Shown here: positions 19,313 through 51,354 of the stretch, piece by piece | Layout of the letters: the number at the start of each line of letters is the position of its first letter | Numbering within the stretch: the stretch's first letter is position 1 | Source of the DNA: Pseudopelagicola sp. | GTDB lineage: Bacteria > Pseudomonadota > Alphaproteobacteria > Rhodobacterales > Rhodobacteraceae | Length of the DNA: 64,000 nt | Direction: 5' to 3' | Assembly: GCA_026195905.1 (NCBI GenBank) | Contig: JAPHRE010000040.1 | Location: 1,363 to 65,362, forward strand | Notes under the pieces: generated by a model | Seen by the model: the letters and a program-made list of their open reading frames with translations, nothing else | The model's database searches: none | What the model was told of the DNA's origin: nothing | Translations under genes and position numbers: made by a program

Positions 19313-20302
19313 CTATGTATCCGCCTCAAGCAGGTCAACAATAGCCCCCGTCGCCCGCGCACCAAGATGCACTTCACCAATGTGACAGGTGACACTGGCC
19401 GCCTTGGATTGCCGCGGCGCGTAGAGCACGGCGCGCGGGTCCGTCGATCGCACCGCAACATCAAGCGCCGTGCACAAGAGCGGCTGTTGATCCGCGGGAT
19501 ACATCAGATGATCCGCGAAACGCTCACAGAAAACCCGTTTGTTGATCACCACAGCGTCGCGGTGCTCTGCATGATTCATCAACACCGGCTCGAGCGACAA
19601 AATCGCATGATACGGACCTGTCGTCTTTTTGTCTGCATAGGTCGAAAGGGCAGCAATCATATCGTCCACTTCATTGGACGCCTCACAAGAGTATGAGATG
19701 AACCCCGCCCCGGTCAGCCCAAACAGCCCCTTGCACGAACTGAACGCCGCAACCTGCGCGACGTCATGCCCGGCCTCAAGCCCGATGGACGCCGTTGCAT
19801 CAAGCGCCAGTTTCGCGCCAACCCGTTTACTCAATGCGGCAAGGCCATCAATCGGCACCAATATGGCCTCGCTGGTTTCTGCGTAGACCGCGAGAACCCA
19901 ATCATATGTGCCGCTCACCGCGTCCAATTGCTGCCAATCGACGACATCGACCTTCCGAATGAACCCATCACGACGCATCCGGCTATTGGCAATCGCCTGA
20001 AGGCGTTGGGCGTAATACCCCGAATTGACGACCAGAACATCGCCATAAAGAAAGTTCGCAATCATGACCTCAATGGCGCTGGTGCCGGACCCCTGCATCG
20101 CTACGGTTTTCGATTGCCCCGCCAAATCGGAGATCATGCCAAGGACATGCGCATAACTATCAAGAAACGCCTGATCCCCGCGACCAAAGCACGGACGCAA
20201 CGCGGCAACATTGCCATAGACCAGACTTGCCGGCCCCGCCGTAAAAAGGGGTTTATCGGCATTGAAACTCTCAATCGTTTCAACGGTAAGGGTATCAGTC
20301 AT
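19313..20302 (-). CDS. Class V PLP aminotransferase, probable 2-aminoethylphosphonate-forming transaminase (divergent)
   Basis: LFTAGP, QGSGTSAIE, LDATAS, PLP lysine in SSCKGL; start overlaps the end of ppd. Confidence 0.75.
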   Translation of the reverse strand: MTDTLTVETIESFNADKPLFTAGPASLVYGNVAALRPCFGRGDQAFLDSYAHVLGMISDLAGQSKTVAMQGSGTSAIEVMIANFLYGDVLVVNSGYYAQRLQAIANSRMRRDGFIRKVDVVDWQQLDAVSGTYDWVLAVYAETSEAILVPIDGLAALSKRVGAKLALDATASIGLEAGHDVAQVAAFSSCKGLFGLTGAGFISYSCEASNEVDDMIAALSTYADKKTTGPYHAILSLEPVLMNHAEHRDAVVINKRVFCERFADHLMYPADQQPLLCTALDVAVRSTDPRAVLYAPRQSKAASVTCHIGEVHLGARATGAIVDLLEADT

Positions 20303-21440
20303 GGGGTCGTCCAATAGCGGCCATAAAGGCGGTTTTACTCTCGGCAGGTGTGGCTTTGGGGCGCCCGAGATCGGATCTTGCACCGGGGGCCACCATAATT
20401 TCGACAAAGCTCGCATGATCCGCAGCCTTCGCCGCCTCTAACGCCGGCCCAATATCTGCGAGCCTCGTGATGCGTTGGGCCGTTTTATATCCAAGCCCTT
20501 TGGCAACCTCTGTGAGCTTGGCATCCGGCCCTGCTGTGACCTGTCCGCCCACAGAATCATGAACTTGGTTGTTAAAGACAATGTGGATCAGGTTCGCTTG
20601 TCTGGCAGAGGTCGCAAGGCTACCCGTATGCATCAAGATCGCACCATCCCCATCAAGACAAGCGACCTTGCGAGCAGGATCGCCCAGCGCAATACCGGTT
20701 GCAATCATCGCCGCGTGTCCCATACCGCCCACCGAAAGAAATGACGGCCCGCCAAGCCCCTCTCCCTGCTGTAACTCATAAACCTCACGAGAGATTTTCC
20801 CCGTCGTCCCGACAAGCGGCATGTCGCCCAAACTTGTAAGGGCGCATTTGATGGCCTCTTCGCGCAGTGGAAAATCCGACATCTCCTGCGGCGGCTTTGT
20901 GGGCGTCGAGAAGGTATTCTTACGTATGACCAACGCCGTAGGCTTTGTCTCTGCCATCGCCGTTCTCAAGAGGTCTTCCGCCGCATCGTGGGCCGCCCCC
21001 AACGCATCGTCCGGGCCGATAACCCGATAGGGAATATCCAGAATATCAAGCACCTCACATGTGATTTCGCCCTGAAAAACATGCTGCGGCTCATCCTTGA
21101 TCTGGCCGAGCGCGGTCATCTCACCGCGCCAACCCACAAGCAAAAGCATGGGAATACCATAGACCTTGGGCGACGCCAGCGACGTCAGAGGGTTGACTGC
21201 ATTGCCCAACCCGGAATTTTGCATAAACACGACAGAGGGGGCGCGCGTACCGAGATACTGACCAATCGCAAGACCAACCGCCGCGCCCTCATCTGCGGCA
21301 ATCTCCAATAAACAGTTACCCTGTTCTGCCCTCGCCTCCAGCCCAACAATAAGGCTGCTGAGAAGCGAATCCGGCACACCAAAATAACTCTGCACACCAA
21401 ACCGCGCCAATGCGCCAAGAAAACCTTCCGAGTCGACCAT
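20295..21440 (-). CDS. aepY: Phosphonopyruvate decarboxylase (AepY/Ppd)
   Basis: GVPDSLL, DEGAAVGLAIG, MQNSGLGNAVNPL, GWRGE...DEPQH, SVGGMGHA, CLDGDGA, HDSVGGQ. Confidence 0.93.
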   Translation of the reverse strand: MVDSEGFLGALARFGVQSYFGVPDSLLSSLIVGLEARAEQGNCLLEIAADEGAAVGLAIGQYLGTRAPSVVFMQNSGLGNAVNPLTSLASPKVYGIPMLLLVGWRGEMTALGQIKDEPQHVFQGEITCEVLDILDIPYRVIGPDDALGAAHDAAEDLLRTAMAETKPTALVIRKNTFSTPTKPPQEMSDFPLREEAIKCALTSLGDMPLVGTTGKISREVYELQQGEGLGGPSFLSVGGMGHAAMIATGIALGDPARKVACLDGDGAILMHTGSLATSARQANLIHIVFNNQVHDSVGGQVTAGPDAKLTEVAKGLGYKTAQRITRLADIGPALEAAKAADHASFVEIMVAPGARSDLGRPKATPAESKTAFMAAIGRPHD

Positions 21441-22735
21441 TACGCTGTTCCCGGAATGAGCTTCAGGATTTGTTTGATGGAAATGATGTCATCTTCGATT
21501 TCAGCCGTGCGACCATTGATCAAAATCGAACGCGCCACCATATCCATCGCCTTGTAGGACGCGCGCAGCATGTGATTGGCATAAATGATGACCTTGACGC
21601 CATGCGCCTGCAATTCGTAATCGTGCACCGTATTGTAGGACGATGGCACTACGACAATGGGAATATCCGGGTGACTGGCCCGGAACTGATCCGTGAACGA
21701 AAAAACTTCGTCCGGTTCTTTTTCTTTGGAATGGATCATAACCGCACCCGCACCCGCCCGAACATAGGCGTCGGCCCGCATCAATGCATCATCCACCCCC
21801 TGCCCGAGGATAAGGCTCTCCAGGCGCGCGATGATCATCATGCCGTTGTACTTCTGGCCCTCGATACCGGCGCGAATCTTGTCCGAGAACTCTTCAATGC
21901 TGGCTTGGGTCTGCGGCACATCAGTGCCAAGCAACGAGTTTTTCTTAAGCCCCGTCTTGTCCTCGATGATTGCGGCCGCAATGCCCATCCGCTCCATCGT
22001 GCGCACCCGCAATTCAAAATGCTCGGCTTTGCCGCCCGTATCTGCATCCATAACCAAGGGTTTGGTTGTGACCTCGAAAATCTCATCAATATTTTGTAAC
22101 CGGCGCGAGATATCCAGGGCTTCGATATCAGGCAGCCCCATTTCCGTGCTATCGGTCAGTGAACTAGACCAAAATCCGTCAAATTGCAGCGTCTTACCAT
22201 TCCGCTCCACCTGCAGGTTTTCACCGATAAGCGCGGCAAGCGGGCTGTGGGCTTCTAGGATACGTACAAGGCGATGCGATTGCATCAACCGCCGGAACGC
22301 CTTTTGGCGGGCATACGGCGATGCGAGCGCCGCTGTCATCTGTGGTGCGATGCTCGCGTTGTCGAATTCATGGCTATAGGGCAATTCGACAAATGTGCCG
22401 CCGTAGCTATTCAATTTTTGGACCACGCGGTCGCGTAGACCCTGCAATGGCCCATCCCACTTGTCACCATGCACAAAAACCTTGGGTTGGTATTTGTCCA
22501 AGACGTCATCAAACTCCCATGCGTCCTGTGCAACCACCTCATCGACACAATCCAGAGACTCAAGGATTTCGCGGCGCTGCTCAAAGGATAAAAGCGGCAA
22601 AGCCTTTTTGTTTTCAAGGGCTTGATCAGTCAAAAGACCGACCGTCACGCGCCCGTGCCGCTTGGCTTCCTTCAGAATCCGAAGATGCCCGTTGTGAAGG
22701 ATTTCCATCGTCATACTGACGTATACTTCAGTCAA
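21440..22735 (-). CDS. pepM: Phosphoenolpyruvate mutase with N-terminal cytidylyltransferase domain (AepX/PepM)
   Basis: N-terminal HNGH cytidylyltransferase motif; LEAHSPLAA, WSSSLTDS, DADTGG, and the diagnostic EDKTGLKKNS; TAATG-coupled to ppd. Confidence 0.95.
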   Translation of the reverse strand: MTEVYVSMTMEILHNGHLRILKEAKRHGRVTVGLLTDQALENKKALPLLSFEQRREILESLDCVDEVVAQDAWEFDDVLDKYQPKVFVHGDKWDGPLQGLRDRVVQKLNSYGGTFVELPYSHEFDNASIAPQMTAALASPYARQKAFRRLMQSHRLVRILEAHSPLAALIGENLQVERNGKTLQFDGFWSSSLTDSTEMGLPDIEALDISRRLQNIDEIFEVTTKPLVMDADTGGKAEHFELRVRTMERMGIAAAIIEDKTGLKKNSLLGTDVPQTQASIEEFSDKIRAGIEGQKYNGMMIIARLESLILGQGVDDALMRADAYVRAGAGAVMIHSKEKEPDEVFSFTDQFRASHPDIPIVVVPSSYNTVHDYELQAHGVKVIIYANHMLRASYKAMDMVARSILINGRTAEIEDDIISIKQILKLIPGTA

Positions 22736-23013
22736 AATTCCCGCCCCATCATTTTTTCAGATTTGACAATATCTTGCCCCCCAACGTAACGCCACCCCGC
22801 CACGACAGCCTTGGCACCATCTATACTGCGGCGCGTCTTCGGGTTTGCAAGCATTGGTATTTGCGGGTGCGATATGAACGCAAGCGTAAGAACCGCAAGC
22901 GCCGCCATTTGAGAGGCCCGAGGCAATATGAAATGCCTGTTCTCAGGGGCCGTATGAGGTGCCCCTCATTTCTGAGGGTCAGCATCGACAAAATTCAGAC
23001 CACCGCATAAAAA

Positions 23014-23029
23014 GTTAACAATAAATTAA
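23014..23029 (-). promoter_or_regulatory. CtrA binding site, TTAA-N7-TTAAC
   Basis: The minus strand reads TTAA-TTTATTG-TTAAC, an exact consensus match, ending ~20 bp upstream of the NRPS-like ATG. Confidence 0.6.
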
Positions 23030-23048
23030 TAATCATAGGCGCGACAGT

Positions 23049-25415
23049 ATGAACGGCTTTTCACCGCTGAGCAGCATGGATGCTTTCTTGGAAGCGACCG
23101 CCAGCCGCTGGGCCAAGATGCCAGAAAAGATTGCCCTCAAAGAGGGGGATCAGGCGCTCAAATTTTTCGAGCTGGAAGCGCGGGCCAATTGCATGGCGCG
23201 CAAGCTTGTCGCCAATGGTGTCGGGATCGGCGAGTTCGTCGGCTACCTGGGGCCGACAGGCATTCCCTTCGTTGTGACATGTTGGGCCTGTTTGAAGGCT
23301 GGGATGACCTTCATGCCAATCAGCCCAAAGTTTCCTGACAAAAGCGTGGTCGATATTTTGACGACCGCAAACGCGAAGGCCTTCGTTTCAGACCGCATTT
23401 TGTCCATCGTCGACGCGAAATTCTGTCAGATGGGTTTACCCGATGAAGAGGAAGATACACAGCCATACCATGCCGCGAACGTCCCCGCGACAGTCCTTGC
23501 AGCTGCAAGCACCACATCTGGAAGCACGGGCATTCCCAAGATTTCAGGCGAAACCAGAGAGATCAAAGCGACCGTCGCCTTGCAATATCTTGAGATGACC
23601 GACCTCGGTGATCGCTCTATTTTCGGCCATTGTGGAACATTGTCGATCCCGTGGCTGCTGGCTGCGCTCCACGCCGGAGCTTGTGTGACCTGCTATGATG
23701 CCGCGGCTGGCTCTGCTCAAGCCTTGTTCGATTGGTTGAAGACCGACAAAGTCACGCATTGGCATAACTACCCTGCGCTATATCGGACACTTTGCGACGT
23801 AGACGGGGCGTTGCCCGATTTGGAAACTCTGGTGCTATGTGGCGAGCCGATATTCCGACACGATTTTGAGCTGTTTGAGCGACTAACCCGACCCGGAGCG
23901 ACCCTTTTTAATATCTATGCCCAGCAGGAGTATTCTCTTGGCGCTGCCTTTGAAATCCGCAACGGAGAACGTCTGGCATTCGACAAGATTCCGGTAGGTC
24001 GGGTTATTGGCGAAAACGATCTGCAAATCTTGGATGAAGATGGCAAGCCGGTCGGACCTCGCGGGATTGGCGAGATCACGCATCGGTCCTTGCGAGTGCC
24101 GGAGGGCTATGTCGGCAACCCCGAGCGCAGCGCACAAGCCTTTGGAGCGGGTGCCGACGGCGTGCGCAGTTTTGCGACGGGCGATCTTGGCTACTTTGAC
24201 AAGGAAGGCTTGCTGCATTTCGTCGGGCGCAAAGATGATCGGGTCAAAATCCGCAATTTCAACGTGTATCCGGCGGATATCGAACAGGAAATCAAGCCGC
24301 ACCCGGAGGTGGACGCGGTGGCGGTCACCGTCAAATACTGCGCGCGGAACCTGCCTCGGCTGGCCTGTTTTTATGAAGGCGCGGTGGCACCCGCAGATTT
24401 GAAGGCGTGGCTGAGCGACCGTATCTCGGCATTCATGATGCCGCAGTTCTTCGTGCCGGTTAAAGCCCTCCCCAGAACGATGACAGGGAAATTGCAACGC
24501 AACCGGCTGGACCTTCCCCAAAATGTCTCGGACGCCGAGCGCATACCTGCGCGCACCCCCACTGAACAGGCGCTGACAGAGGTTTGGCAGGATATTCTCG
24601 GCCATGAGGATTTCGGCGTGGCGGATAATTTCTTCGATGTCGGCGGGGACAGCCTGCGGGCGATGGAGTTGCTCCTGTTGATGAACAAGCGGTTCGGACG
24701 CCTCTTGACGCTCGATCAGGTCATCATGGCGGAGGCGAGCATTCAGGGCGTTGCAGAATTGATTGAGGCCAACGCGGAGCGGTCGCAACTGCGCCTGCTC
24801 AAGCCCGGCGACAGCAAGACGCATATCGTTGTTGGCCATGTTTATGGAGGTGGGGTGACAGATTACCTCGACTTTGCCCGCGCCACTGGCGGCGAAATCC
24901 GAGTTTCGGGAATCTGCGCCGATTATTCGCAACGCAACCGCGCCTATCCGATCCGGCAAAAGGCCAAGGAAGCCGCAAGCCACGTGCCAAACGATCCGGC
25001 GACTGTGATGATGGGGTATAGCTATGGCGGTCGGATTGCCTTTGAAATTGCCCAACTCATGGGGGCCGGCGGGCGGATCGTTCTGGTGGACCCGATCGGG
25101 CCGTTCAGCAACCGATTGATACATTGGCTAGAAGACATTGCCAAAAAGCTCGTGATGCCCCGCTCCGAATTGGGGACAGAGCGGAATTACCTTGGCGATT
25201 TTGTCTACCGGCCCAAACCGCTCAGGACTGCGGGCGCGCTATTGATAACCTGCGAGACTTCCCACAAGGAAGATATCATAGGCTGGTCAGCGGCACTGGA
25301 CGGGCCGGTCGAGGTTCTTGAGGTTCCGGGAACGCACTGGGACATCCTGCGCGGTGCCAATGCCATTGAGGTTGCCAACAAAGTGCAGGACTGGCTGACA
25401 CGCGCGCCCACGTAG
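23049..25415 (+). CDS. Standalone NRPS-like protein, adenylation-thiolation-thioesterase (A-T-TE)
   Basis: TSGSTGIPK, FATGDLG, GRKDDRVKIR, LPRTMTGKL; PCP motif FFDVGGDSL; TE motifs GYSYGG, LVDP, GTHW. Confidence 0.88.
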   Translation: MNGFSPLSSMDAFLEATASRWAKMPEKIALKEGDQALKFFELEARANCMARKLVANGVGIGEFVGYLGPTGIPFVVTCWACLKAGMTFMPISPKFPDKSVVDILTTANAKAFVSDRILSIVDAKFCQMGLPDEEEDTQPYHAANVPATVLAAASTTSGSTGIPKISGETREIKATVALQYLEMTDLGDRSIFGHCGTLSIPWLLAALHAGACVTCYDAAAGSAQALFDWLKTDKVTHWHNYPALYRTLCDVDGALPDLETLVLCGEPIFRHDFELFERLTRPGATLFNIYAQQEYSLGAAFEIRNGERLAFDKIPVGRVIGENDLQILDEDGKPVGPRGIGEITHRSLRVPEGYVGNPERSAQAFGAGADGVRSFATGDLGYFDKEGLLHFVGRKDDRVKIRNFNVYPADIEQEIKPHPEVDAVAVTVKYCARNLPRLACFYEGAVAPADLKAWLSDRISAFMMPQFFVPVKALPRTMTGKLQRNRLDLPQNVSDAERIPARTPTEQALTEVWQDILGHEDFGVADNFFDVGGDSLRAMELLLLMNKRFGRLLTLDQVIMAEASIQGVAELIEANAERSQLRLLKPGDSKTHIVVGHVYGGGVTDYLDFARATGGEIRVSGICADYSQRNRAYPIRQKAKEAASHVPNDPATVMMGYSYGGRIAFEIAQLMGAGGRIVLVDPIGPFSNRLIHWLEDIAKKLVMPRSELGTERNYLGDFVYRPKPLRTAGALLITCETSHKEDIIGWSAALDGPVEVLEVPGTHWDILRGANAIEVANKVQDWLTRAPT

Positions 25416-25466: not shown

Positions 25467-25781
25467 TTATTTTTCTGTCACGTCTGAAATCCAAGTGCCT
25501 GCTGCAACGGCACGTGGCAATCCTAGCGGGCCAATTGCCAAAAGAGCAACTTGATGTAGATCGCCTTCTGCAACACCTTCAGCCAAACCCCGACGCGCAT
25601 GAGAGTGAACGGCGCCCTCGGACCCTGCGCCAATAGCCAATGCGAGCTTGACCAAACGGCGTTCACGTGTCGTTAGGTCTCCGGCCTTGGCCGTTGCCGC
25701 GCCTAAATCAGCATAAGCAGACCAGATTGTTGGGTGGCTTTTGGCAAGGTCACCCGCGGCGCCTGGTAGGTCTTTACTCAT
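25467..25781 (-). CDS. Carboxymuconolactone decarboxylase (CMD/AhpD-like) family protein
   Basis: LTTRERRLVKLALAIG...AVHSHARRG pattern. Confidence 0.8.
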   Translation of the reverse strand: MSKDLPGAAGDLAKSHPTIWSAYADLGAATAKAGDLTTRERRLVKLALAIGAGSEGAVHSHARRGLAEGVAEGDLHQVALLAIGPLGLPRAVAAGTWISDVTEK

Positions 25782-25807
25782 GGTTTTTCCTTTCGGTGTT
25801 GAATGCA

Positions 25808-26815
25808 CTACCCGCCAAGGGCAGACATATGGCGCGACACAGCAGGGCGCGTCATGTTTGACATATCAAAACTGTGCCGCTCAGGTTTTGTTGCGAGGGC
25901 TGCGCGGATCGCATCTGTCACCGCGTGTTCGGATGTGCGCAACGCTGTGCGCAGATCAACCGAGCCTTCATCCCCCATGCAAGTATAAAGCCGTCCTGTG
26001 CAACTGACGCGGACACGGTTGCAAAGCGAACAGAAGTTGCATGACATCGGCGAAATGAAACCCAGTTGACCGCCTGTCTCGCCGACCTGCATGTAGCGCG
26101 CCGGCCCGCCCGAACTGCGCCGACTGGGCGTCAATGTCCAGCGGCGCGCAAGAGCGGCCTGCACGTCACACAGCGAGAGTACGCTCTGGCTGCGGTCAAG
26201 GCCCGTCTCGCCCAGCGGCATTTCCTCGATCAAGGTCAGGTCCATACCACGCGCATGCGCAAAGCGGATCAACGCGTCGACTTCCCCTTCAAAGGCACCG
26301 CGGCTGGCGACCGCGTTGAGCTTGACTTTCAGCCCACAAGCCAGAGCCGCATCAATGCCCTCATGCACACGGGCGATATCCCCCAGCCGCGTCAAGGCGC
26401 GAAAACGCGCGCCGTCCAGCGTATCAAGCGATATATTGACCCGTTTCACCCCACAGGCGGCCAGCGCCTCGGCGTGTTTGGCCAGTTGCGTGCCATTGGT
26501 TGTCAGCGTCAACTCGTCCAGCGCACCGGATTTGACATGCTGCGAGAGGTCGCGAAATAGCGCGATGACATCCGGGCGCACCAATGGTTCGCCCCCTGTC
26601 AGGCGCAGTTTACGCACGCCCCGGCGTATGAAAATGTCACTGAGCCGCGCCAGTTCCTCAAGATCAAGAACATCGCGCCGTGGCAGAAAGGTCATCTTTT
26701 CCGCCATGCAATAAGTGCAGCGCAGATCACAGCGGTCTGTCACAGAAAGTCGCAGATAGCTTACCGTGCGGCCAAAACTATCAACAAGAGGGGCGGGATT
26801 GGCATCAAGCGGCAT
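25808..26815 (-). CDS. moaA: GTP 3',8-cyclase MoaA
   Basis: LRLSVTDRCDLRCTYC, LTGGEPL, CNFCSLCNRVR, C-terminal GG. Confidence 0.95.
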   Translation of the reverse strand: MPLDANPAPLVDSFGRTVSYLRLSVTDRCDLRCTYCMAEKMTFLPRRDVLDLEELARLSDIFIRRGVRKLRLTGGEPLVRPDVIALFRDLSQHVKSGALDELTLTTNGTQLAKHAEALAACGVKRVNISLDTLDGARFRALTRLGDIARVHEGIDAALACGLKVKLNAVASRGAFEGEVDALIRFAHARGMDLTLIEEMPLGETGLDRSQSVLSLCDVQAALARRWTLTPSRRSSGGPARYMQVGETGGQLGFISPMSCNFCSLCNRVRVSCTGRLYTCMGDEGSVDLRTALRTSEHAVTDAIRAALATKPERHSFDMSNMTRPAVSRHMSALGG

Positions 26816-27332
26816 TGCGGGCCTCTCGGGTTTGGTGGAACCATGTCAGAACAATGTCTTGGGTCATGGGCAGATCACAGGACAGCCCGGCCCCAAATTC
26901 GGCCCAAGCCTCTTCATAGGTCGGGCGCACCGCGATCAGCACGGGCACATCCAGCTCGATCGCTCGGCTGATCAACTCACGAAAACCACGCCCCTCGCTT
27001 TCGCCACGACCAAACCGGTTAAGGATCAACAGGTCTGCGCCCTCTTCAAGCTCTGCCTCGATGAAAGAGGAACATTGCGCCAGCGCCCCCGGATGCAGAC
27101 GGCACCCCTGCGAGCCATTGCCCAGGGGTTGCGAAATACGAAAGACACGTGACGAGCCGAGCGTGGTCAGGTCCATGTCGGCGCAATGGCACGCACCGCC
27201 CTCAGCCCCGCGCGTCTGCAGTGCGCCGCGTATACGGTATCCATCGGATATCAGTGTCCGGGCAACTTTGCTAAGAAACCCGTCAATATCGTCATGCTCA
27301 AAGCGCACGGCAGCGAGGGGAAAGAAGGTCAT
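26805..27332 (-). CDS. DUF2478-family protein (P-loop-like, molybdenum-associated)
   Basis: ISQPLGNGSQGCRLHPGAL, LILNRFGRGESEGRGFR; ATGA-coupled to moeA. Confidence 0.75.
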   Translation of the reverse strand: MTFFPLAAVRFEHDDIDGFLSKVARTLISDGYRIRGALQTRGAEGGACHCADMDLTTLGSSRVFRISQPLGNGSQGCRLHPGALAQCSSFIEAELEEGADLLILNRFGRGESEGRGFRELISRAIELDVPVLIAVRPTYEEAWAEFGAGLSCDLPMTQDIVLTWFHQTREARNAA

Positions 27333-28600
27333 GATATGTATCCTCCTTGGCAAAATGGGCGCCAGAAAAGTGGCGCATCGGGTGTTATTTCGCAGCACTC
27401 TGCGGGCACGATGGCAAGGCCATCCGCGCCGCCAAGCGGTAGCAAGGTTGCCGATACGCTCTGCCCCAGACGGTTCAGAACCGGCAGGCCTGCGCTGGTG
27501 TAGCTGGCAAGGCGCACGGGAAAGACTTCGGCGCGGCCCGACTTGCGCACCCACTCAAATCCAGCCACTGCAGGAACAGGCGCAAAGGTTTCGGGGGACG
27601 CACCAAGCAGACGGTCGAGTTGCGGGCGCACAAACATGTGAAAGCCCACAAACACGGCAAAGGGATTTCCGGGCAGCCCAGTAAAAGCCGCCGCGCCCAA
27701 GCTTCCAAACATCACCGGCTTGCCCGGTTTAAGCGCAACGCGCCAGCCGTGCACGGTTCCGCCAGCCGCTATGAAAGCGCTGCGAATATGATCTTTGCCA
27801 CCCATCGACACGGCACCAGAGGACAGGATCAGATCGAAACCGGCCTCCAGCCCGGCAAGTGCGGCGGCGGTGATGTGTGGATCATCGGGCAATATCCCCA
27901 GATCAGTGACCTCCGCGCCCGCTTGCTGCGCAAGTGCCAGCAACATCGGGCGGTTGGCATCGTGAATTTGACCTGGTGCACGTGGCCCCTGGCCCAGCTC
28001 ATCGCCCGTGGAAAAGACCGCAATACGGGGCCGCCGCACAGCCTCGATCGCGTCCATACCATTGGCGGCGAGCAGACCGATATGATGCGCCCCTACGCGG
28101 TTGCCTGCTTCAAGCAATACCTGACCGGCATCCTGATCACTTCCCGCGCGGCGAATGTTTGCGCCCGGTTTGGGCGGGCTGGAAAAATGCACCTTGCGGG
28201 TCTTGTCGATACAGGCTTCAATCATGGCGACCGCGTCGGCACCTTTGGGCAGCGGCGCGCCAGTGTAGATGCGCATGGCCGCGCCTTCGGGCAGATCGCA
28301 AGGCGCATCACCGGCGGCGACAGTGCCCGCAACGGGCAGGCAGCAACGCCCCTTCAGATCGCTCAGGCGCAGGGCGAAACCGTCCATCGCGGAGTTGTCA
28401 AAGAAGGGCATCGCAGAGGGCGCGATCACATCCGTAGCGGCGGTGCGCCCGATAGCCTGCGCCAGCGGCACGATCTCGCGGTCGTGGATCGGGAATAGAT
28501 TGGCCAGCGCCAGATCGCGCGCAGCCGACAGGCTCAAGAGTCTTTGCATCTCGGCAAGATCATCACAGCCGCAGCCAGTTGAAACATGAGTGCCGTCCAT
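27329..28600 (-). CDS. moeA: Molybdopterin molybdotransferase MoeA
   Basis: FDNSAMDGFA, RIYTGAPLP, STGDEL, SGAVSMG, KPGKP, GLPGNP. Confidence 0.95.
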   Translation of the reverse strand: MDGTHVSTGCGCDDLAEMQRLLSLSAARDLALANLFPIHDREIVPLAQAIGRTAATDVIAPSAMPFFDNSAMDGFALRLSDLKGRCCLPVAGTVAAGDAPCDLPEGAAMRIYTGAPLPKGADAVAMIEACIDKTRKVHFSSPPKPGANIRRAGSDQDAGQVLLEAGNRVGAHHIGLLAANGMDAIEAVRRPRIAVFSTGDELGQGPRAPGQIHDANRPMLLALAQQAGAEVTDLGILPDDPHITAAALAGLEAGFDLILSSGAVSMGGKDHIRSAFIAAGGTVHGWRVALKPGKPVMFGSLGAAAFTGLPGNPFAVFVGFHMFVRPQLDRLLGASPETFAPVPAVAGFEWVRKSGRAEVFPVRLASYTSAGLPVLNRLGQSVSATLLPLGGADGLAIVPAECCEITPDAPLFWRPFCQGGYIS

Positions 28601-28682
28601 GAGTGCCTCCTGCAACACGTCAGAATTTTTTTTTGGGGGGGGAGATGGATGCGGCGGCGCAGGGCAGCCGCATCCTATGTCG

Positions 28683-31352
28683 TTACATCGCGTCAGCGGC
28701 GTTCTTCATCAGGAACTCCATGACGAGGTCCGCTTCTTCGCCTTCAAGGCCAGCGCGTGGGAACATCGACGGTGTGATGCCTTTCCACTGTTGCTGGGTG
28801 AAGTGCGTGACCTCCCGCGGCGCGTGGCAGACTGTGCAGCGCTCGTAGTAGATTTTTTCGCCCGGCCCCATGTCCGCATAGAGTTTCTCGGTCAGGGTTT
28901 CGAGGCGATCAAGGCCAAGCTTGTCCTCGTCAATCTCGGCGATTTCCATGTCCTCGATAATCGGCGGCTTTTCATAGGCTTGGTTCGGCCCTTCTGGATC
29001 CTCACACTTGCGCATCGAGCAAAGAACGGTGTTCGCCGTTGTGGCCTGCGCGAGGCCCGAGGAAGGCTGCGTAGAGGTCAGGAAGTTCACCAGACCCGAA
29101 TTACACCGCCCCTTGCTGTCAAGAGATGGCCATGCGCCTTCGTAGATCGAAACCACACCCGGCATGATGTCATCGCTGACAACAGCCCCGGCGATCACTG
29201 TGCCACGCTCGTTGTAGAGCTCGACCAGATCGCCATCTTCGATACCGCGAGACGCGGCGTCTTCGGTGTTGATCCGAACAGGCTCACGCCCCTGCACCTT
29301 GTAGAGGTCACGCAGTGTTTCCGATTGGTCCATCTGGCTGTGCAGGCGGAACCACGGGTGCGGCGAGACAACGTGCAACTGGCCTTCTTTGGCATTGCCG
29401 AGGTATTCGTGCTTTTCCATCCAAATCGGCATGCCGGGCATGTCGTCGATCTCGAGCTTTGCAAAGTCTTCGCAGAACATTTCGATCTTGCCAGACGTTG
29501 TGTGCAGCGGGTTGCCCTCAGGATCCTGATAGAACTCGCCGTGGCGCGTCCACTTGCGGGCCGCTTCAGGCACCTCCATGCGGGCATAGCCTTTTTCCCA
29601 GAATTCCTCAAACGGCGTGTGCGCGGCGGCACTGGAAGCCTCATAGGCGAGCTTGATGTGATACATCTTGTCTTCACCTTCGGTGAACTGCATCCACAGC
29701 CCCAGCTTGTCGGCCAAGCCTTCGAAGATTTCGTAATCCGGCAGGCTTTCGCCAATCGGTTCGATGACCTTCTTCATTGCATAGACTTTGTCGTTGGAAT
29801 AGGTGCCACCGGATGTGATGTCGTCCTGCTCCAACGTCGAGGCCGCAGGGAACACGATGTCACACCAGCGTGTCGCAGCTGTCCACCAGACATCGACGCT
29901 GATCACGGTTTCCACTGTCTCAAGCGCACGGATCAGACGGTTGGTGTCTTGCTGGTGGCTCATAAAGTTGTTGCCAGCATTAAAGATCACCTTCACATCA
30001 GGATACGTGTGGGTATTGCCGTTGTAGAAAACTTCCTTGCCGGGGTTTTCCAGCATGTCGGTGATCCGGCTCGCCGGGCAGACGCCGGTGACAAAATTCC
30101 TGCCCTGAGACATGCCCACGGGTGTGGATTTGCCCGAAGCAGGCATGCCGCCGTTGCCATAGTGCCAGCTAAAGCCAACACCACAGCCCGGCTTGCCGAT
30201 CTTGCCGGTCAGGGCTGCGAAGTTGATGATGGCCCAGTGCGTCATCTCGCCATGCTGGGCACGCTGTAGGGACCATGCCCCCGCGATGTTGGTGTTCGAC
30301 TTGGCAAAAAGCTCGGCCATCTCGCGGATCTTGTCCGCTTCGATGCCGGTGATCTCGGCGGCCCACTCGGGCGTTTTCGCAACACCGTCATCATCGCCTT
30401 TGACATAGGCAATCCACTTGTCGGAACCGACAGTGTATTTGTCCATATAGGCTTGGTCCTCAAGACCCTGCTCAAGCACATGGTGCGCCATCGCGCAGAA
30501 CAGCGCGACATCGGTGTTGGGAACGATCCGAACCCAGTCAGCGTCAAAGTACTCATCAGAGGCCGTTCTCTGCGGGTTGATCGAGACAAACTTGACGCCT
30601 GCGTCGCGGATGGACTCCCAATGCGCATACATGCCGTGGTCCGCCACGCGATACTCGACGCGGTTGTTCTTGATCGGGTCACATCCGACCAGCACGAAGA
30701 CCTCACATTCATCGCGGATGGTTTCCCATGCGGATTGCGTCGAGTAGACTTCCATATCACCGATGATATGCGGCAGGGATACCTGCGATGCACCGGCAGA
30801 CCAGTCACCGGAAGTATTGGTGCACCCGCCAAGAAGGTTGATCAAACGGCCCTGCAAAACGTTGGGGCGGAATACGCCGGCGTTGGACCAGCCGCCATAA
30901 GACGACGAGAAGATCGCTTCGTTGCCGTGGTTGGCGGCTGTGTCGAGAAGGGCTTTGGCCGCGAGGCTCCAAGCCGTGTCCCAATCGACCTTGACGTATT
31001 CTTCCTTACCGCGAAGTTCGGGCTTGGTATCGCCGGTTTCCCAGCCTTCCAGATAGGACTTGCGCACCATCGGATAGTTGATACGGGATTTGTCGTAGGT
31101 GCGGTCCAACACACCATGATTCAGCATTTCCGTGGGACGGGCATCAATCTCCATGATGTTGTTGATGCCGATCAGCTTGCCATCGCGCACCACGGCCTCA
31201 AACGGGCCAAAGTGTGTCGCATGGAAAACGCGGCCTTTGAACGAGTTGGGGTCAAGTGCGGCCATAGCCGTAGTGCCCATAAGGCTCGTCGCGCCAAACA
31301 TGGCAGCACCGCCTTGCAAAAACGCGCGCCGGGTTGGTTGTGTGAATGACAT
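28683..31352 (-). CDS. torA: TorA/DorA-family periplasmic molybdoenzyme (S-/N-oxide reductase) with Tat signal and fused C-terminal monoheme cytochrome c
   Basis: Tat motif TRRAFLQG; HFGPF, YPMVRKSYL, GDWSAGASQ (Mo-Ser), QRAQHGE, GNNFMSHQQD, PHPWFRLHSQ; C-terminal CTVCH at 28824-28838 in a TorC-C-terminal-like context. Confidence 0.88.
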   Translation of the reverse strand: MSFTQPTRRAFLQGGAAMFGATSLMGTTAMAALDPNSFKGRVFHATHFGPFEAVVRDGKLIGINNIMEIDARPTEMLNHGVLDRTYDKSRINYPMVRKSYLEGWETGDTKPELRGKEEYVKVDWDTAWSLAAKALLDTAANHGNEAIFSSSYGGWSNAGVFRPNVLQGRLINLLGGCTNTSGDWSAGASQVSLPHIIGDMEVYSTQSAWETIRDECEVFVLVGCDPIKNNRVEYRVADHGMYAHWESIRDAGVKFVSINPQRTASDEYFDADWVRIVPNTDVALFCAMAHHVLEQGLEDQAYMDKYTVGSDKWIAYVKGDDDGVAKTPEWAAEITGIEADKIREMAELFAKSNTNIAGAWSLQRAQHGEMTHWAIINFAALTGKIGKPGCGVGFSWHYGNGGMPASGKSTPVGMSQGRNFVTGVCPASRITDMLENPGKEVFYNGNTHTYPDVKVIFNAGNNFMSHQQDTNRLIRALETVETVISVDVWWTAATRWCDIVFPAASTLEQDDITSGGTYSNDKVYAMKKVIEPIGESLPDYEIFEGLADKLGLWMQFTEGEDKMYHIKLAYEASSAAAHTPFEEFWEKGYARMEVPEAARKWTRHGEFYQDPEGNPLHTTSGKIEMFCEDFAKLEIDDMPGMPIWMEKHEYLGNAKEGQLHVVSPHPWFRLHSQMDQSETLRDLYKVQGREPVRINTEDAASRGIEDGDLVELYNERGTVIAGAVVSDDIMPGVVSIYEGAWPSLDSKGRCNSGLVNFLTSTQPSSGLAQATTANTVLCSMRKCEDPEGPNQAYEKPPIIEDMEIAEIDEDKLGLDRLETLTEKLYADMGPGEKIYYERCTVCHAPREVTHFTQQQWKGITPSMFPRAGLEGEEADLVMEFLMKNAADAM

Positions 31353-31441
31353 GTGAATGCCTCCTGTGGCTGACTATCTGGCCCCACACTACTCTTGTGA
31401 CCATCTACAGACTTTGCGCCTGCGCAATTTGGCTTGTTCTA

Positions 31442-31459
31442 AAATGTAAAGAAATGTAA
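31442..31459. promoter_or_regulatory. 10-bp-period direct repeat (AAATGTAA x2), candidate TorR/OmpR-family site
   Basis: aaatgtaaag-aaatgtaat in the torA/torR divergent intergenic region. Confidence 0.45.
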
Positions 31460-31468
31460 TGTCACACG

Positions 31469-32173
31469 ATGTCCCAGCATATCCTCATTGTGGAAGACGA
31501 CCGCACCACGCGGATGCGCCTCGCCGCCTATCTGCGCGGGCAAGGGTATCGTGTGAGTGAAGCCGAAAATGCAGGCGATATGGAGGCGATCATCGAAGCC
31601 GATCCGCCGGAGGTCATGCTTGTCGATATCAACCTCGGTGGCAAAGACGGGCTCACGATCACGCGCGAACAGCGCGCCGCATCACGAGTCGGGATCATCC
31701 TGTTGACCGCCCGCGACGATCAGATCGACAAGATCATCGGTCTCGAAATGGGCGCGGATGACTACGTGACCAAACCCTTCGACAAACGCGAGCTTGCCGC
31801 ACGGGTCAAAAACCTGATGGCCCGAATAGCCGATATCGGACAAGCGCCGCAGGGTCCGGCACCGATTGTCGACTTTGGTCCTTGGTGCTTTGATCGAATC
31901 CGCCGCAGGCTGATCTCGGCCGCGCGCGTCGAAACACTGACCAAACAGGAATTCGATGTCATGTCCGCCCTTGCCGATCACCCCGGACAGACCCTCAGCC
32001 GCGCCCGGCTTGCCGAGATGATGGGGCGCGAGGCTCTGCGCTCAAACGATCGGATGATTGATGTTGTCGTGGGTCGGCTGCGAAAAAAGCTGGAACGAGA
32101 CCCCGCGAACCCGGAATGGATTCTGACAGAGCACGGCAAAGGCTATCACTTTGTGGATCCTGCAAAGGTCTGA
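31469..32173 (+). CDS. torR: OmpR-family response regulator, TorR/DorR-like
   Basis: ILIVEDD, DINLGGKDG, GADDYVTKPF, winged helix with TEHGKGY; divergent from torA. Confidence 0.8.
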   Translation: MSQHILIVEDDRTTRMRLAAYLRGQGYRVSEAENAGDMEAIIEADPPEVMLVDINLGGKDGLTITREQRAASRVGIILLTARDDQIDKIIGLEMGADDYVTKPFDKRELAARVKNLMARIADIGQAPQGPAPIVDFGPWCFDRIRRRLISAARVETLTKQEFDVMSALADHPGQTLSRARLAEMMGREALRSNDRMIDVVVGRLRKKLERDPANPEWILTEHGKGYHFVDPAKV

Positions 32174-34926
32174 AGCCCCGCGTCTTTGGCTGCCCCTTGC
32201 AGCACCGCGCGCGCCTGCAAGGCGCAACTGTGAACCATATCCAAGACCTCCGCATCAACGTCACCCTCTGCCTCCTCAACGCGGGCCAGAACGGCGCAGA
32301 GCGCCTCCAGGCGGAAGTTGGAGGCCGCCCCTTTCAACTTGTGCGCCGCCTGGCGCTTTGCGTCGGGCGGGGCCGACATAATCGTCTCGACAGCACCGTC
32401 TAACCCGTCAAGAAACGCCTGCACGATCTGCGCCGTGATGTCCGGCCCCAGATCGCGCATGTCCTCGCACAGGCTTTCGAGAACCAGCGGGTCCACAGGT
32501 GGCCGCGAGGGCGCGCTCTCCTGCTCAAGAACCTGCGCAAGGGCGCGTGGCGATATGGGTTTGGCCAGAATCCTCGCAACGCCAAGCCGCGCGCGATTCT
32601 CGACCGTATCGTCAATCAAATGGGCCGTCAGCGCCACCAACAAGGGGGCGTTCTCGGTCTGACCGAGCGCCGAGGCAACCTCCTCGCCGCGCATGTCGGG
32701 CAAATCGAGGTCAATCAGCACCAGATCGAAAGACTGCGTCTTGCAGGCCTGCAAGCCCGCCGCGCCTGTTGCAGCTCCGCTGACCCGACACCCGAGCCGC
32801 TCCAGATAGCCACGCGCAACCATCAGGTTCACCGCGTGATCGTCAATCACCAGCACGTCGCGCCTCGCCCCCGCCTGCGCCGTGTCTGCGTCATCTTCGG
32901 TTGCGATGGCCATATCCCCCTCCAACAAGGGAACCGTCAGGGTAAAGCGGCTGCCCACGCCCGCTTCGCTTTCAACCTGTAGAGCACCCCCAAGCGCCTC
33001 GGTCAGATTACGCGAAATGGCAAGGCCAAGCCCCACACCCTCGATCCCGGCGCGTTTCGCCGAATCTGCACGTGTATACGCATCAAAGGCATAGGAAATC
33101 GCCTCGCCGGTCATACCGACTCCCGTATCGGTCACCGTGAAGCTGATAACAGGCTGGTCCGTATCGGGGTCAACCGCATGATCGACCGCAAACGCCACAG
33201 TTCCGCGCCGGGTGTATTTGACAGCGTTCGAAATCAGGTTGCCCACGATCTGGCGTATCTTCACCACATCACCAAACAGAGCCAAAGGCGCAGAATCGGA
33301 CAGGTCGATGACCACCTCAATCCCCTTTGGCGCGGCAAGGGTTTGCAATTGATGCCCCAACTGCCCGACCAGTTCGCGCAGGCGAAAATGCACCGGATTA
33401 CCGCGATTGCCCTGATCTTCGCTGCCAGCATAGGCAAGAATATCATTGGTGATCTCAAGCAGATCCCGCGCCGAGGCAAGTGCTGTGCGCGCGCGGTCCT
33501 GTCTGTCGGTATTCTGTTCCTCGGAGGTCAGCAGATCAAGCATGCCAATGATACCGTTGAGCGGCGTGCGTATTTCATGGCTCATGCGCGCAAGGAACTC
33601 TGTCTTGCTGTGATCTGCCGCTTCGGCCCGCGCACGCGCCGCATCCGAGGCCTGCATTTCGGCAACCACATCGCCCGTTCGGGCAATCACCGCATCTTCC
33701 AAACTGTCGCGCAACTGCTCTGCATCACTGACCCGGCGGCGCAAGATATTAAGCGCCTTCTCCATGCGCCCGATCTCGTCATGGCCGCTGATCTCCATCG
33801 GCGCCCCATAGCTGCCGCGCGCGACATCGACGATACGACGTGAGATCCTGCTCAAACGTTCAACCAACTGCCGGCGCGCATAGACCCAGAGCATGCCCGC
33901 CCCCATCACCGCAGCGATCAAGACCACAAAGAGCGCGGCAACCATCCATTCGGAGCGCCGCTCTACCGCCGCGATCTGCGCCAACCCGTCCGCCTGAACG
34001 GCATCACGTGCCTGACGCCCCCGCAAAGAGAGAGCCGCGATGGTTTCCCGCAAAAGAGCACGATCTTGTGCAATCTCGCCTTGCAACAGAATCCGCTCCT
34101 GCTGCAACGCAACCATGCCCCCCTGCTCCACAGCCTGTTGTTGACGCAGCAATAGCGCCCTGACTTCGCGCTGGGCCGAGGGAGATGGCAGATAGGCGAC
34201 ACGCCGCAGCGCCAGCGTCAGACGCGCCGACACATCCTGCCGCGCACTCTGTACCGCCTCCAGCGTCGCAAGCGAGGGCACCTGTTGAACCTGCAAACGC
34301 GTAGCATCGACCATGCGCGCAAGCTCCGTAAGCCGTTCAAAGGCAAAAAAGTAACGATCGCCCAAAGCATCAAGCGCGGGCTGCGGATTGATATCGGGTT
34401 TGGTATAGATATCCGTAATGCTGGCGGTGATCCTGAGGCGGGCCAGATCGGTTTCGGCTTCGATCAGATGGTCCAGCCGCGCACCGTCCTGCGCCAGGGC
34501 GCGCGCCCCGGTGTGCACTTGGGCGGCAAGATCCAGCTCCGCTCGCGCGTTCGCACTCATCCGCTCAACAATGCAACCGGCCTCAAGCGGTTGCGAGGCG
34601 GGGACAAAATCCGGGCGCATCTGTTCGAGCCTCCGCGAGCCTTCCTCGATCCGGGCCACTGTCCGTCCGAGCGTCTCAGTGACCTCATCAAGCCCTGCGC
34701 GAGTGTCGGCCCGGCCAAAGGCTTCCTCCAACGAACCGACCACCTCGACCGCTACGCCGATCCTGCTGGCAAGCTCGATTGCGGGCAGGTTGGTCTGAAC
34801 AAGCTCGGCCTGCGCGCGCACCAGATAGCGGTTGACGCCAATGGCTGCCACACCCACCATAATGGCCAACGCCGCCATTGCGGAGAGTATCTGGATCAAC
34901 CTTGTGTCAAATCTTGTGCGCCGCAT
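32146..34926 (-). CDS. torS: Hybrid sensor kinase (periplasmic sensor-HAMP-HisKA-HATPase-REC-HPt), TorS/DorS-like
   Basis: [43 protein letters not shown], HPt AAHKLKGAA. Confidence 0.82.
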
Positions 34927-35902
34927 TATCCAACACTACGTGGCCGCCTGCGCGGGCACAATAACTGCGCTCGTGATAATGGCCCTTATCGCGCCCGCTC
35001 CGGCGCAAGCAGATACACGACCGCTTTATTGCGTTCTCGTGCCGCATTTCAAAGATGAATACTGGCTGAGCGTCGGCTTCGGCATCGAACAGGAGGCCCG
35101 GCAACAAGGCGTTGATGTGGTGTTCTTCGAGGCCGGAGGATACAACGCCCGCAAAACCCAGATCAGCCAGCTTGATGCCTGCCTGACCTTTGGCGCAGAG
35201 GCGATCCTGATCGGCGCTGTGTCATCTGACCATCCTGATCTCACAACAGCCATTGCACGGGTGGCAAAGAGCGTTCCGGTGTTAGGGCTGGTGAACGAAT
35301 TACACTCTGAGGCATTGAGCGGAAGTATCGGCGTGGACTGGCAAGACATGGGGTATGCTGTCGGCAAATACCTAAGCGCATTGCACCCTGCGGGATCACC
35401 TGAAAAGACGGCTGTTTTCCTGACCGGCCCCGCCGAGGCCGGTTGGACACTGCCGCTCGAGACAGGGTTGCGCAATGGTCTTGCCAAAAGTTCGGTTCGC
35501 ATCTTGGAGGTGCTTGGGGCAGATACCGGCATTCGACAGCAACTTGTTCTGGCCGAAATCGCATTGGATCGCCATCCGGATGTCGACTATCTCATCGGCA
35601 GTGCACCGGCAATCGAAGCCGCCATCGGCCTGCTCGCAACCCGCCCCGACGCGGGCCAGCCACAGCTCGTTGCAACCTATGTGAGCCACACAATCATGCG
35701 CGGCCTGATGAACCAAAGCATCCTTGCTGCGTCTTTTGACAATCCAATTCTCCAAGCACAAATGGCGGTCAAAAAGGCCAAATCACTGCGCCTGAAACCT
35801 GACCAGAGTATCAGGCCAAAGGTCACGCTTCTTACCCAGGATGACAAAAACCTGCACGCTATTCCACTCTCTCCCGCTGACTATTTCCCGTCTGTGCAAT
35901 GA
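34916..35902 (+). CDS. torT: Periplasmic sensor-accessory protein TorT (TMAO-binding type); start codon uncertain (34916, 34940 or 34979)
   Basis: YCVLVPHFKDEYWLSVGFG, FEAGGY...QISQL, ATYVSH, PADYFP resemble TorT; signal peptide; divergent from torS. Confidence 0.8.
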   Translation: MRRIIQHYVAACAGTITALVIMALIAPAPAQADTRPLYCVLVPHFKDEYWLSVGFGIEQEARQQGVDVVFFEAGGYNARKTQISQLDACLTFGAEAILIGAVSSDHPDLTTAIARVAKSVPVLGLVNELHSEALSGSIGVDWQDMGYAVGKYLSALHPAGSPEKTAVFLTGPAEAGWTLPLETGLRNGLAKSSVRILEVLGADTGIRQQLVLAEIALDRHPDVDYLIGSAPAIEAAIGLLATRPDAGQPQLVATYVSHTIMRGLMNQSILAASFDNPILQAQMAVKKAKSLRLKPDQSIRPKVTLLTQDDKNLHAIPLSPADYFPSVQ

Positions 35903-50910: not shown

Positions 50911-51354
50911 ATGAAGAACCTGTTTGTTGCAACCGCAGCACTGATCGCCCTCTCCGCCCCCGCATTCGCCGAAGGCGATGCCGAAAAGGGCGAGAAAGCA
51001 TTCAAAAAATGTAAAGCCTGCCACATGATCGTTTCTCCGGAAGGCGAAGAGATCTTCAAAGGCGGCAGAACCGGCCCGAACCTCTACGGGATCGTTGGCC
51101 GCACTGCTGGCACCGTTGAAGACTTCCGTTACAAAGACGGCCTCAAAGACGCTGCCGAAGCTGGCTTCGTCTGGACCGAAGAGTCGATTGCTGAATACGT
51201 CGTCGACCCCAAAGCATGGCTTGATGCCAATGGCTTTGCCAAGAAATCCGGCATGAGCTTCAAGATGCGCAAAGGCGGCGAACACGTTGCGGCCTACCTC
51301 GCATCCGTCGCTCCGGCGCCTGAAGCGGCCGAAGAAGAGGCCGCTGCTGACTAA
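50911..51354 (+). CDS. cycA: Cytochrome c2/c550
   Basis: Signal peptide, KCKACH, GPNLYG, axial Met in SGMSF; upstream of ctaD. Confidence 0.88.
   Translation: MKNLFVATAALIALSAPAFAEGDAEKGEKAFKKCKACHMIVSPEGEEIFKGGRTGPNLYGIVGRTAGTVEDFRYKDGLKDAAEAGFVWTEESIAEYVVDPKAWLDANGFAKKSGMSFKMRKGGEHVAAYLASVAPAPEAAEEEAAAD

Follow-up and report, generated by a model that had tools for sequence, protein, structure and literature searches.

Two described respiratory systems invite comparison with the gene discussed here, namely the trimethylamine N-oxide (TMAO) reductase system TorCAD of E. coli and Shewanella and the dimethyl sulfoxide (DMSO) reductase system DorCDA of Rhodobacter; in both, a serine-ligated catalytic subunit holding molybdenum bis(pyranopterin guanine dinucleotide) (Mo-bisPGD) is paired with a pentahaem cytochrome, TorC or DorC, whose fifth-haem domain is the donor to TorA. 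We analysed a 64,000-nucleotide stretch of contig JAPHRE010000040.1 of Pseudopelagicola sp. (assembly GCA_026195905.1), hereafter the window, in which a single gene (28683..31352, minus strand, stop codon included) encodes a twin-arginine translocation (Tat) signal, a Mo-bisPGD S/N-oxide reductase body, an acidic linker and a monohaem cytochrome c domain. The fused protein resembles TorCAD and DorCDA in its Ser-ligated Mo-bisPGD catalytic fold, in its TorT/TorS/TorR-type regulation and in its haem domain, a homologue of the one that binds the fifth haem in TorC/DorC. It differs from them in sharing 34-40% identity with TorA/DorA, in belonging to a genome with neither the tetrahaem NapC/NirT quinol-dehydrogenase module nor TorD, and in a predicted supply of electrons from the cytochrome c pool and not directly from quinol.

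Two further systems bear on the architecture itself. In Campylobacter (Cj0264c/Cj0265c of C. jejuni, BisA/BisB of C. concisus), a type III reductase exported by Tat works with a monohaem donor related to the TorC C-terminus and fed by a bc-type complex; the 189-aa cytochrome leaves the cell by the Sec route, electrons come from the Qcr complex, and these split relatives reduce TMAO, DMSO and methionine sulfoxide (PMC10653797). The Campylobacter cytochrome thus stands by itself, at about 180-190 aa and with a Sec signal of its own, whereas here it is fused behind an acidic linker and would travel with the Tat substrate; no separate Sec-exported monohaem cytochrome gene stands beside the reductase, both parts lying in one frame. 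The nitrous oxide reductase cNosZ of Wolinella succinogenes is likewise a terminal reductase of the periplasm, which electrons enter by way of a monohaem cytochrome c domain at its C-terminus, but it switched from Tat to Sec on gaining that domain (PMC8139620), while the Mo-bisPGD enzyme described here, presumably loaded in the cytoplasm, keeps its Tat signal. We consider it probable that the product is a type III member of the DMSO-reductase family that acts in the periplasm as a soluble TMAO (N-/S-oxide) reductase, with a dedicated electron-entry cytochrome fused at its C-terminus and fed from cytochromes bc1 and c2.

Architecture of the fused protein

The open reading frame (ORF) runs for 889 aa without interruption on the minus strand, whereas the plus-strand frame is full of stops. 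The initial annotation had described an uninterrupted 889-aa ORF at 28683-31352 with a Tat signal, a Ser-ligated body and a TorC-type tail; all of this stands, except that the strand has to be given as minus. Judging from more than 130 independent assemblies in which the frame is continuous, a hidden stop between the domains is ruled out. The gene is, on this comparison, real and intact, and its architecture, although widespread among marine bacteria, goes without a family name. The mature protein has a predicted mass of 95.7 kDa and contains a single CxxCH.

By reading of the sequence, residues 1-31 (31260..31352, minus strand) form a twin-arginine signal peptide with the motif TRRAFL and a predicted cleavage after AMA. 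The N-terminus reads MSFTQPTRRAFLQGG...TTAMA/AL and follows the T-R-R-x-F-L consensus (TRRAFLQ...AMA). The features expected of a Tat substrate, i.e., an S/T-R-R-x-F-L-K motif, a hydrophobic region, an A-x-A site and a Tat machinery in the genome, can all be recognised, and the RR motif is present in every divergent fused member inspected.

The catalytic body covers residues 44-784 (29001..31223, minus strand), as delimited by Pfam, NCBIfam, alignment with the structure 1eu1 and an AlphaFold2 model. Pfam assigns Molybdopterin_N to residues 44-86, Molybdopterin to 90-548 (2e-50) and Molydop_binding to 659-775; the top NCBIfam models are bisC_fam, at 840.9 bits for a cut-off of 1017.55, and TorA, at 678.4 and 642.1 bits for cut-offs of 909 and 1465, so that no curated cut-off for either is reached. 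RefSeq labels the family members generically as “molybdopterin-dependent oxidoreductase”. Taken at the level of sequence, the fused protein is a distinct subfamily of the type III DMSO-reductase family (TorA/DorA/BisC; TIGR00509). Its best sequence match among solved structures is the R. sphaeroides DMSO reductase 1eu1, in which the Mo ligand Ser147 corresponds to Ser185 here (codon at 30798-30800, minus strand; predicted Mo ligand) and Tyr114 to Tyr152. The first cysteine of the mature protein is residue 177; the protein therefore has no N-terminal iron-sulfur motif, as expected of a type III enzyme. The AlphaFold2 model has a mean predicted local distance difference test (pLDDT) score of 83.8, and its closest folds in the PDB are MtsZ, DorA and TorA (template modelling score 0.93-0.94, target-normalised; 34-40% identity), with 7l5i, 1eu1 and 1dmr as the Foldseek matches; the three Pfam domains and the four-domain fold are those of the type III family. 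In two family alignments of 50 diverse members each (47-89% identity), Ser185, Tyr152 and Trp155 are invariant. From its signal, ligand and predicted fold, then, the protein is a Tat-signal enzyme of the TorA/DorA type within the type III family.

Behind the body comes an acidic, hydrophilic linker (residues 785-830; 28863..29000, minus strand) with 14 D+E, 4 K+R and a grand average of hydropathy of -0.85; its length is conserved across the fused family. Residues 831-889 (28686..28862, minus strand) then form a monohaem cytochrome c domain of the TorC C-terminal type, recognised from TIGR02162, BLASTP and invariant residues. Its CxxCH (28824-28838, minus strand) reads C839-T-V-C842-H843, and Met863 (codon at 28764-28766, minus strand), in an invariant P-S-M863, is the likely distal haem ligand. 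Positions 325-381 of the 387 in the TorC model TIGR02162 align to residues 831-887 with an E-value of 4.6e-7, and BLASTP of the tail gives 3e-8 against the haem domain at the C-terminus of a TorC-like cytochrome, encoded in a torCDA locus of Rhodovulum, and 1e-8 against the free-standing monohaem cytochrome of the split sister form described below. Modelled alone, the tail folds into a four-helix bundle (pLDDT 86) for which c-type cytochromes take all of the first seven places in the PDB fold search, although at weak E-values (0.14-0.45); a sequence search of the PDB with the tail as sole query returned nothing significant, and no structure of a TorC C-terminal domain was found there for comparison.

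C839, C842, H843 and M863 are invariant in the same two alignments, which is far beyond what chance would leave of a CxxCH in a 105-aa tail, and conservation is equally high in the tail and in the catalytic body. Of the two parts that define the TorC/DorC pentahaem cytochromes (TIGR02162), the protein has the C-terminal CxxCH monohaem domain and lacks the N-terminal membrane-anchored tetrahaem NapC/NirT module. The genome, which is 97% complete, contains no member of the NapC/NirT family (PF03264), and the fusion tail is the sole match of the TorC profile (TIGR02162) over its whole length. Because the tetrahaem module is absent from protein and genome alike, the tail is best described as the last domain of TorC and not as TorC itself.

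Spread and origin of the fusion

Protein and genome searches recovered well over 100 full-length homologues of 878-935 aa, and 133 distinct tails with the CxxCH...SM pattern were obtained from the fetched loci. The fused homologues come from Alpha-, Beta- and Gammaproteobacteria (53-93% identity), including many Rhodobacterales as well as Roseibium/Labrenzia, Pseudovibrio, Shinella, Azospirillum, Thauera, Aromatoleum, Lautropia, Cupriavidus, Acidovorax, Alicycliphilus, Aliivibrio fischeri and Photobacterium; several copies are plasmid-borne. As far as these searches reach, the architecture is present in hundreds of genomes and on plasmids, and the idea that it is rare is not supported. The distribution is patchy within the source organism's own family (16 of the 400 genera sampled). 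When a library was clustered at 50% identity, just one further representative that is fused over its full length ranked high among the matches (55% identity, first place); an unfused 797-aa protein at 45% came next. Conservation across the fused family shows strong purifying selection on the intact frame and its domains, and likewise on the Tat motif, on the Ser ligand and on CxxCH and Met.

Some members deserve separate mention. One relative genome (G141/G329) carries two full-length fused paralogues (C7:131216-133888 and C5:18671-21334; loci L167 and L168), with 74% and 69% identity to the protein of the window, and a genome from the source organism's own genus has a fused copy at 54% identity that belongs to a different subclade; together, the paired paralogues and the congener copy point to repeated horizontal acquisition. 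The copy of Photobacterium sp. DA100 (L172, NZ_CP119424.1:1332600-1335229) aligns as two pieces, and in one alphaproteobacterial metagenome-assembled genome (L060:8353-8670) the stretch that immediately precedes the haem domain reads out of register; frameshifts or sequencing errors separating the domains are possible in both. Open frames of 938-1181 aa beside unfused homologues were considered as alternative fusions and rejected, as they have no CxxCH tail and represent GC-rich upstream read-through. Cereibacter sphaeroides f. sp. denitrificans encodes an 894-aa fused member (P0429). It is also the reported source of the first preparation of the classical DMSO reductase, which has no haem, and the fused protein would then be a second enzyme there.

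The closest unfused relatives (45% identity; L291:4894-7832 (+), and L292) have, 9 nt downstream of the reductase, a separate cytochrome gene whose 180-aa product combines a Sec-type signal with CTQCH...W.G...SM, i.e., a monohaem cytochrome. In a maximum-likelihood tree built from the columns of the Mo body only, the 22 fused sequences included form one clade (Shimodaira-Hasegawa approximate likelihood ratio test, SH-aLRT, 100) whose sister, also with support of 100, is the split form, and a single change of state is sufficient. Since the fused sequences are monophyletic, sister to the split form and separated from it by a single change, the fusion arose once, as read from this tree, from a two-gene arrangement of the Campylobacter type, with a Tat reductase and a Sec monohaem cytochrome. 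The Campylobacter arrangement had been proposed beforehand as the point of comparison, and the sister clade displays exactly that layout. The split locus L291/L292 continues with genes for a response regulator, for a binding protein of the SBP_bac_5 family and for a histidine kinase, which are not the TorT/TorS/TorR set.

Electron supply, export and physiological role

CcmE, TatC and the cytochrome c1 of the bc1 complex are present in the source genome, and no member of the TorD/DmsD/NarJ family is found anywhere in it. A gene for a 147-aa cytochrome c2 (50911..51354, plus strand; E 3.9e-46 to PDB 1c2n), a candidate electron donor, lies outside the locus, about 20 kb from the reductase; cytochrome c2 is likely to be the physiological donor. 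As the genome has no TorC/NapC module, the enzyme must, to judge from gene content, be fed from the soluble cytochrome c/bc1 side, which agrees with the link to the cytochrome c pool made in the initial annotation.

The regulatory genes lie upstream of the reductase, on the divergent side. They comprise a TorR-like response regulator of the OmpR family (31469..32173, plus strand; best NCBIfam match TorR, 240 bits for a cut-off of 275), a TorS-like hybrid sensor kinase with HAMP, HisKA, HATPase, receiver and Hpt domains (32146..34926, minus strand; TIGR02956, 399 bits, below cut-off) and the periplasmic TMAO-binding protein TorT (34832..35902, plus strand; NF008185, 320.6 bits for a cut-off of 200; true start probably downstream of the TTG). 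In Azospirillum, and likewise on a plasmid of Leisingera, the fused gene is again flanked by torT, torS and torR. In the mechanism that we propose, TorT and TorS would sense TMAO and TorR would activate the operon at tandem decamer boxes; the apoprotein would take up Mo-bisPGD in the cytoplasm, with moeA and moaA co-expressed; Tat would export the folded body together with the acidic, hydrophilic apocytochrome tail of about 105 residues, still unfolded as it would be unable to fold without haem; and the cytochrome c maturation (Ccm) system would attach haem to the tail afterwards, in the periplasm. Electrons would then pass from quinol to bc1, to cytochrome c2 (or pseudoazurin), to the haem c domain, to Mo and finally to TMAO, whose reduction would be coupled to the Q-cycle and not to the TorC quinol dehydrogenase.

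Export and maturation of such a protein raise a difficulty, as one polypeptide needs both Tat and Ccm; the puzzle was rightly noted in the initial annotation. Tat reportedly tolerates unstructured hydrophilic tails (Richter et al. in 2007, Lindenstrauss and Brueser in 2009). The puzzle is sharpened by cNosZ, which escaped it by moving from Tat to Sec (PMC8139620); that exit is closed to the fused family, which needs both Tat and Ccm because a Mo-bisPGD enzyme cannot switch to Sec. The route proposed above would be a plausible solution. We lean, with some reserve, towards regarding the fused protein as a natural obligate substrate of Tat and Ccm, in which the cofactor-loaded body would drag an unfolded tail that receives its haem later, the whole proceeding without a proofreading chaperone of the TorD family. 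We found no experimental dissection of Tat and Ccm acting on one polypeptide in the literature; if the proposal is true, the family would offer a ready-made system for testing how far Tat quality control tolerates an unfolded domain and may reveal whether DUF2478 or another operon product replaces TorD.

Other explanations differ mainly in the substrate and in the direction of electron flow. The physiological substrate could be other than TMAO, such as DMSO, methionine sulfoxide (free or in proteins) or another N-oxide, as for DorA, MtsZ or Campylobacter BisA: in sequence and fold, R. sphaeroides DorA and H. influenzae MtsZ come closest and not TorA, Tyr152 corresponds to Tyr114 of DorA, every NCBIfam equivalog cut-off is missed, and the Campylobacter split relatives accept three substrates (PMC10653797). 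We nevertheless find this unlikely, with TorT above its curated cut-off, torS and torR as best matches and the trio kept beside the fused gene in distant genomes; the haem-containing enzyme of Roseobacter denitrificans discussed below, which reportedly reduced neither DMSO nor methionine sulfoxide, also speaks for TMAO. This TMAO-sensing neighbourhood also speaks against an oxidative role, envisaged in the initial annotation, in which trimethylamine (TMA) or dimethyl sulfide (DMS) would be oxidised and electrons delivered to the cytochrome c pool. The part of an acceptor would be open to a c-type haem with a fairly high potential, and type II relatives such as DMS dehydrogenase do work so; yet all characterised members of the type III family are, to our knowledge, reductases, and the operon contains no linked genes for TMA or DMS uptake or catabolism. 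With the conserved TorT/TorS/TorR genes indicating TMAO-induced reduction, the oxidative role is unsupported, and we hold it to be very improbable.

The other two explanations question the fusion itself. The cytochrome domain might never be loaded with haem, being exported folded by Tat or rejected by it, and the tail would then be a docking element or a structural relic; artificial Tat-apocytochrome constructs are said to have failed in E. coli (Sanders et al., 2001), and the passage of cNosZ to Sec on acquiring its cytochrome c domain (PMC8139620) points the same way. The two cysteines, the histidine and the methionine are invariant all the same, the whole domain is conserved at the level of the body down to 53% overall identity, the genome has no alternative donor module, and haem c is reported from the purified R. 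denitrificans enzyme, so that a haem-free relic seems to us scarcely credible. The two adjacent genes, 9 nt apart, of the sister clade would be just the material for an assembly or sequencing artefact, but the continuity of the frame extends over more than 130 independent genomes, plasmids and metagenomes, and the tail has an acidic linker in the place of a Sec signal; we give practically no weight to an artefact.

Some points do weigh against a TMAO reductase fed from bc1 and cytochrome c2. Since the TorA and bisC_fam scores fall under their curated cut-offs, substrate specificity cannot be transferred from these models, and Tyr114 of DorA, the equivalent of Tyr152, is a residue linked to S-oxide activity. 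Haem loading, substrate, donor and export route of the fused protein are all inferred. The redox potential of cytochrome c2 normally lies above that of the TMAO/TMA couple, so that the driving force through c2 needs explaining. Finally, Roseobacter denitrificans is not among the matches listed from protein, genome and plasmid searches and from two degenerate DNA pattern scans.

This last point matters because of an earlier enzyme. A TMAO reductase was reportedly purified from R. denitrificans by Arata, Shimizu and Takamiya (J Biochem 112:470, 1992); the enzyme is said to be a homodimer of 90-kDa subunits, by sodium dodecyl sulfate polyacrylamide gel electrophoresis, containing haem c (midpoint potential about +200 mV) and a molybdenum cofactor. 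Its reported substrates are TMAO and some N-oxides, with no activity towards DMSO or methionine sulfoxide; cytochrome c2 is said to donate electrons to it directly, and bc1 to be implicated in TMAO respiration. The likeness lies in a single chain of about 90 kDa with haem c and Mo there, against 95.7 kDa and one CxxCH here, and in a roseobacter host there, against a roseobacter genome with cytochrome c2 and bc1 and no TorC here. We think that the fused family is probably the enzyme type purified in 1992, for which it would supply the gene family. On novelty, full-text literature searches found no gene-level description of the fusion; if the link to the 1992 enzyme holds, the condition set in the initial annotation, that the architecture is already characterised, would largely apply at the biochemical level. 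In R. litoralis, a DMSO/TMAO reductase gene, RLO149_c007970, stands on its own, away from the three genes of a dms cluster (PMC3141670), which is compatible with a link to the 1992 enzyme and proves nothing.

If a bc1/c2-fed TMAO reductase is indeed what the fused genes encode, a generic or plain TorA annotation hides a TMAO respiration that uses bc1 and the cytochrome c pool and dispenses with TorC and TorD; it would affect how the potential for converting TMAO to TMA is read from marine and host-associated metagenomes, and the routing of electrons via bc1 would link TMAO reduction to the Q-cycle.

Genes and sites around the reductase

Between torR and the reductase lie 116 bp of divergent promoter region, which contain the tandem decamers ATTACATTTC / TTTACATTTT (31441..31460, minus strand), which are candidate TorR boxes, their function being predicted from the motif. 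The same tandem TTACA(T/A) repeat is found near -106/-96 in most of 50 related loci, and CTGTTCAT, which resembles the E. coli tor box consensus, is present in some of them.

Downstream of the reductase lies a gene group (25467..28618, minus strand), identified from Pfam, NCBIfam and gene order, that comprises moeA (27329-28618), a DUF2478 gene (ORF 26805-27554, likely true extent about 26805-27332, with an ATG overlapping the moeA stop as ATGA), moaA (25808-26815) and a CMD/AhpD-like gene (25467-25808), all on the minus strand. No terminator-like site was found in the interval between reductase and moeA, the stop and start codons of the downstream genes overlap, and the Leisingera plasmid has an identical gene order plus a pseudoazurin gene; the four genes are likely to be co-transcribed with the reductase.

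The DUF2478 gene directly adjoins TorA-type reductase genes in three differing loci, namely the window, the Leisingera plasmid (L174:11020-11547) and a Rhodovulum torCDA plasmid (L175:7519-8067). Because the genome studied here has no TorD-family chaperone, the DUF2478 protein is a candidate maturation factor. The plasmid of Rhodovulum sulfidophilum (NZ_CP015420.1) also carries, upstream of torD-torA, a gene for a 541-aa c-type cytochrome (L175:2681-4306 (+)) whose C-terminal half matches TorC 202-384 and whose N-terminal half is not NapC/NirT-like; from these matches, it appears to be another non-canonical electron-entry partner of a TorA.

Elsewhere in the window (19313-25415), there is a phosphonate-type cluster. 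On the minus strand, it contains a phosphoenolpyruvate mutase fused to a cytidylyltransferase domain (21440-22735), a thiamine pyrophosphate-dependent decarboxylase (20295-21440) and an ORF of 367 aa (19313-20416) for which Pfam gives no match; a stand-alone adenylation/carrier/thioesterase protein is encoded on the plus strand (23049-25415), opposite to the phosphonate-type genes.

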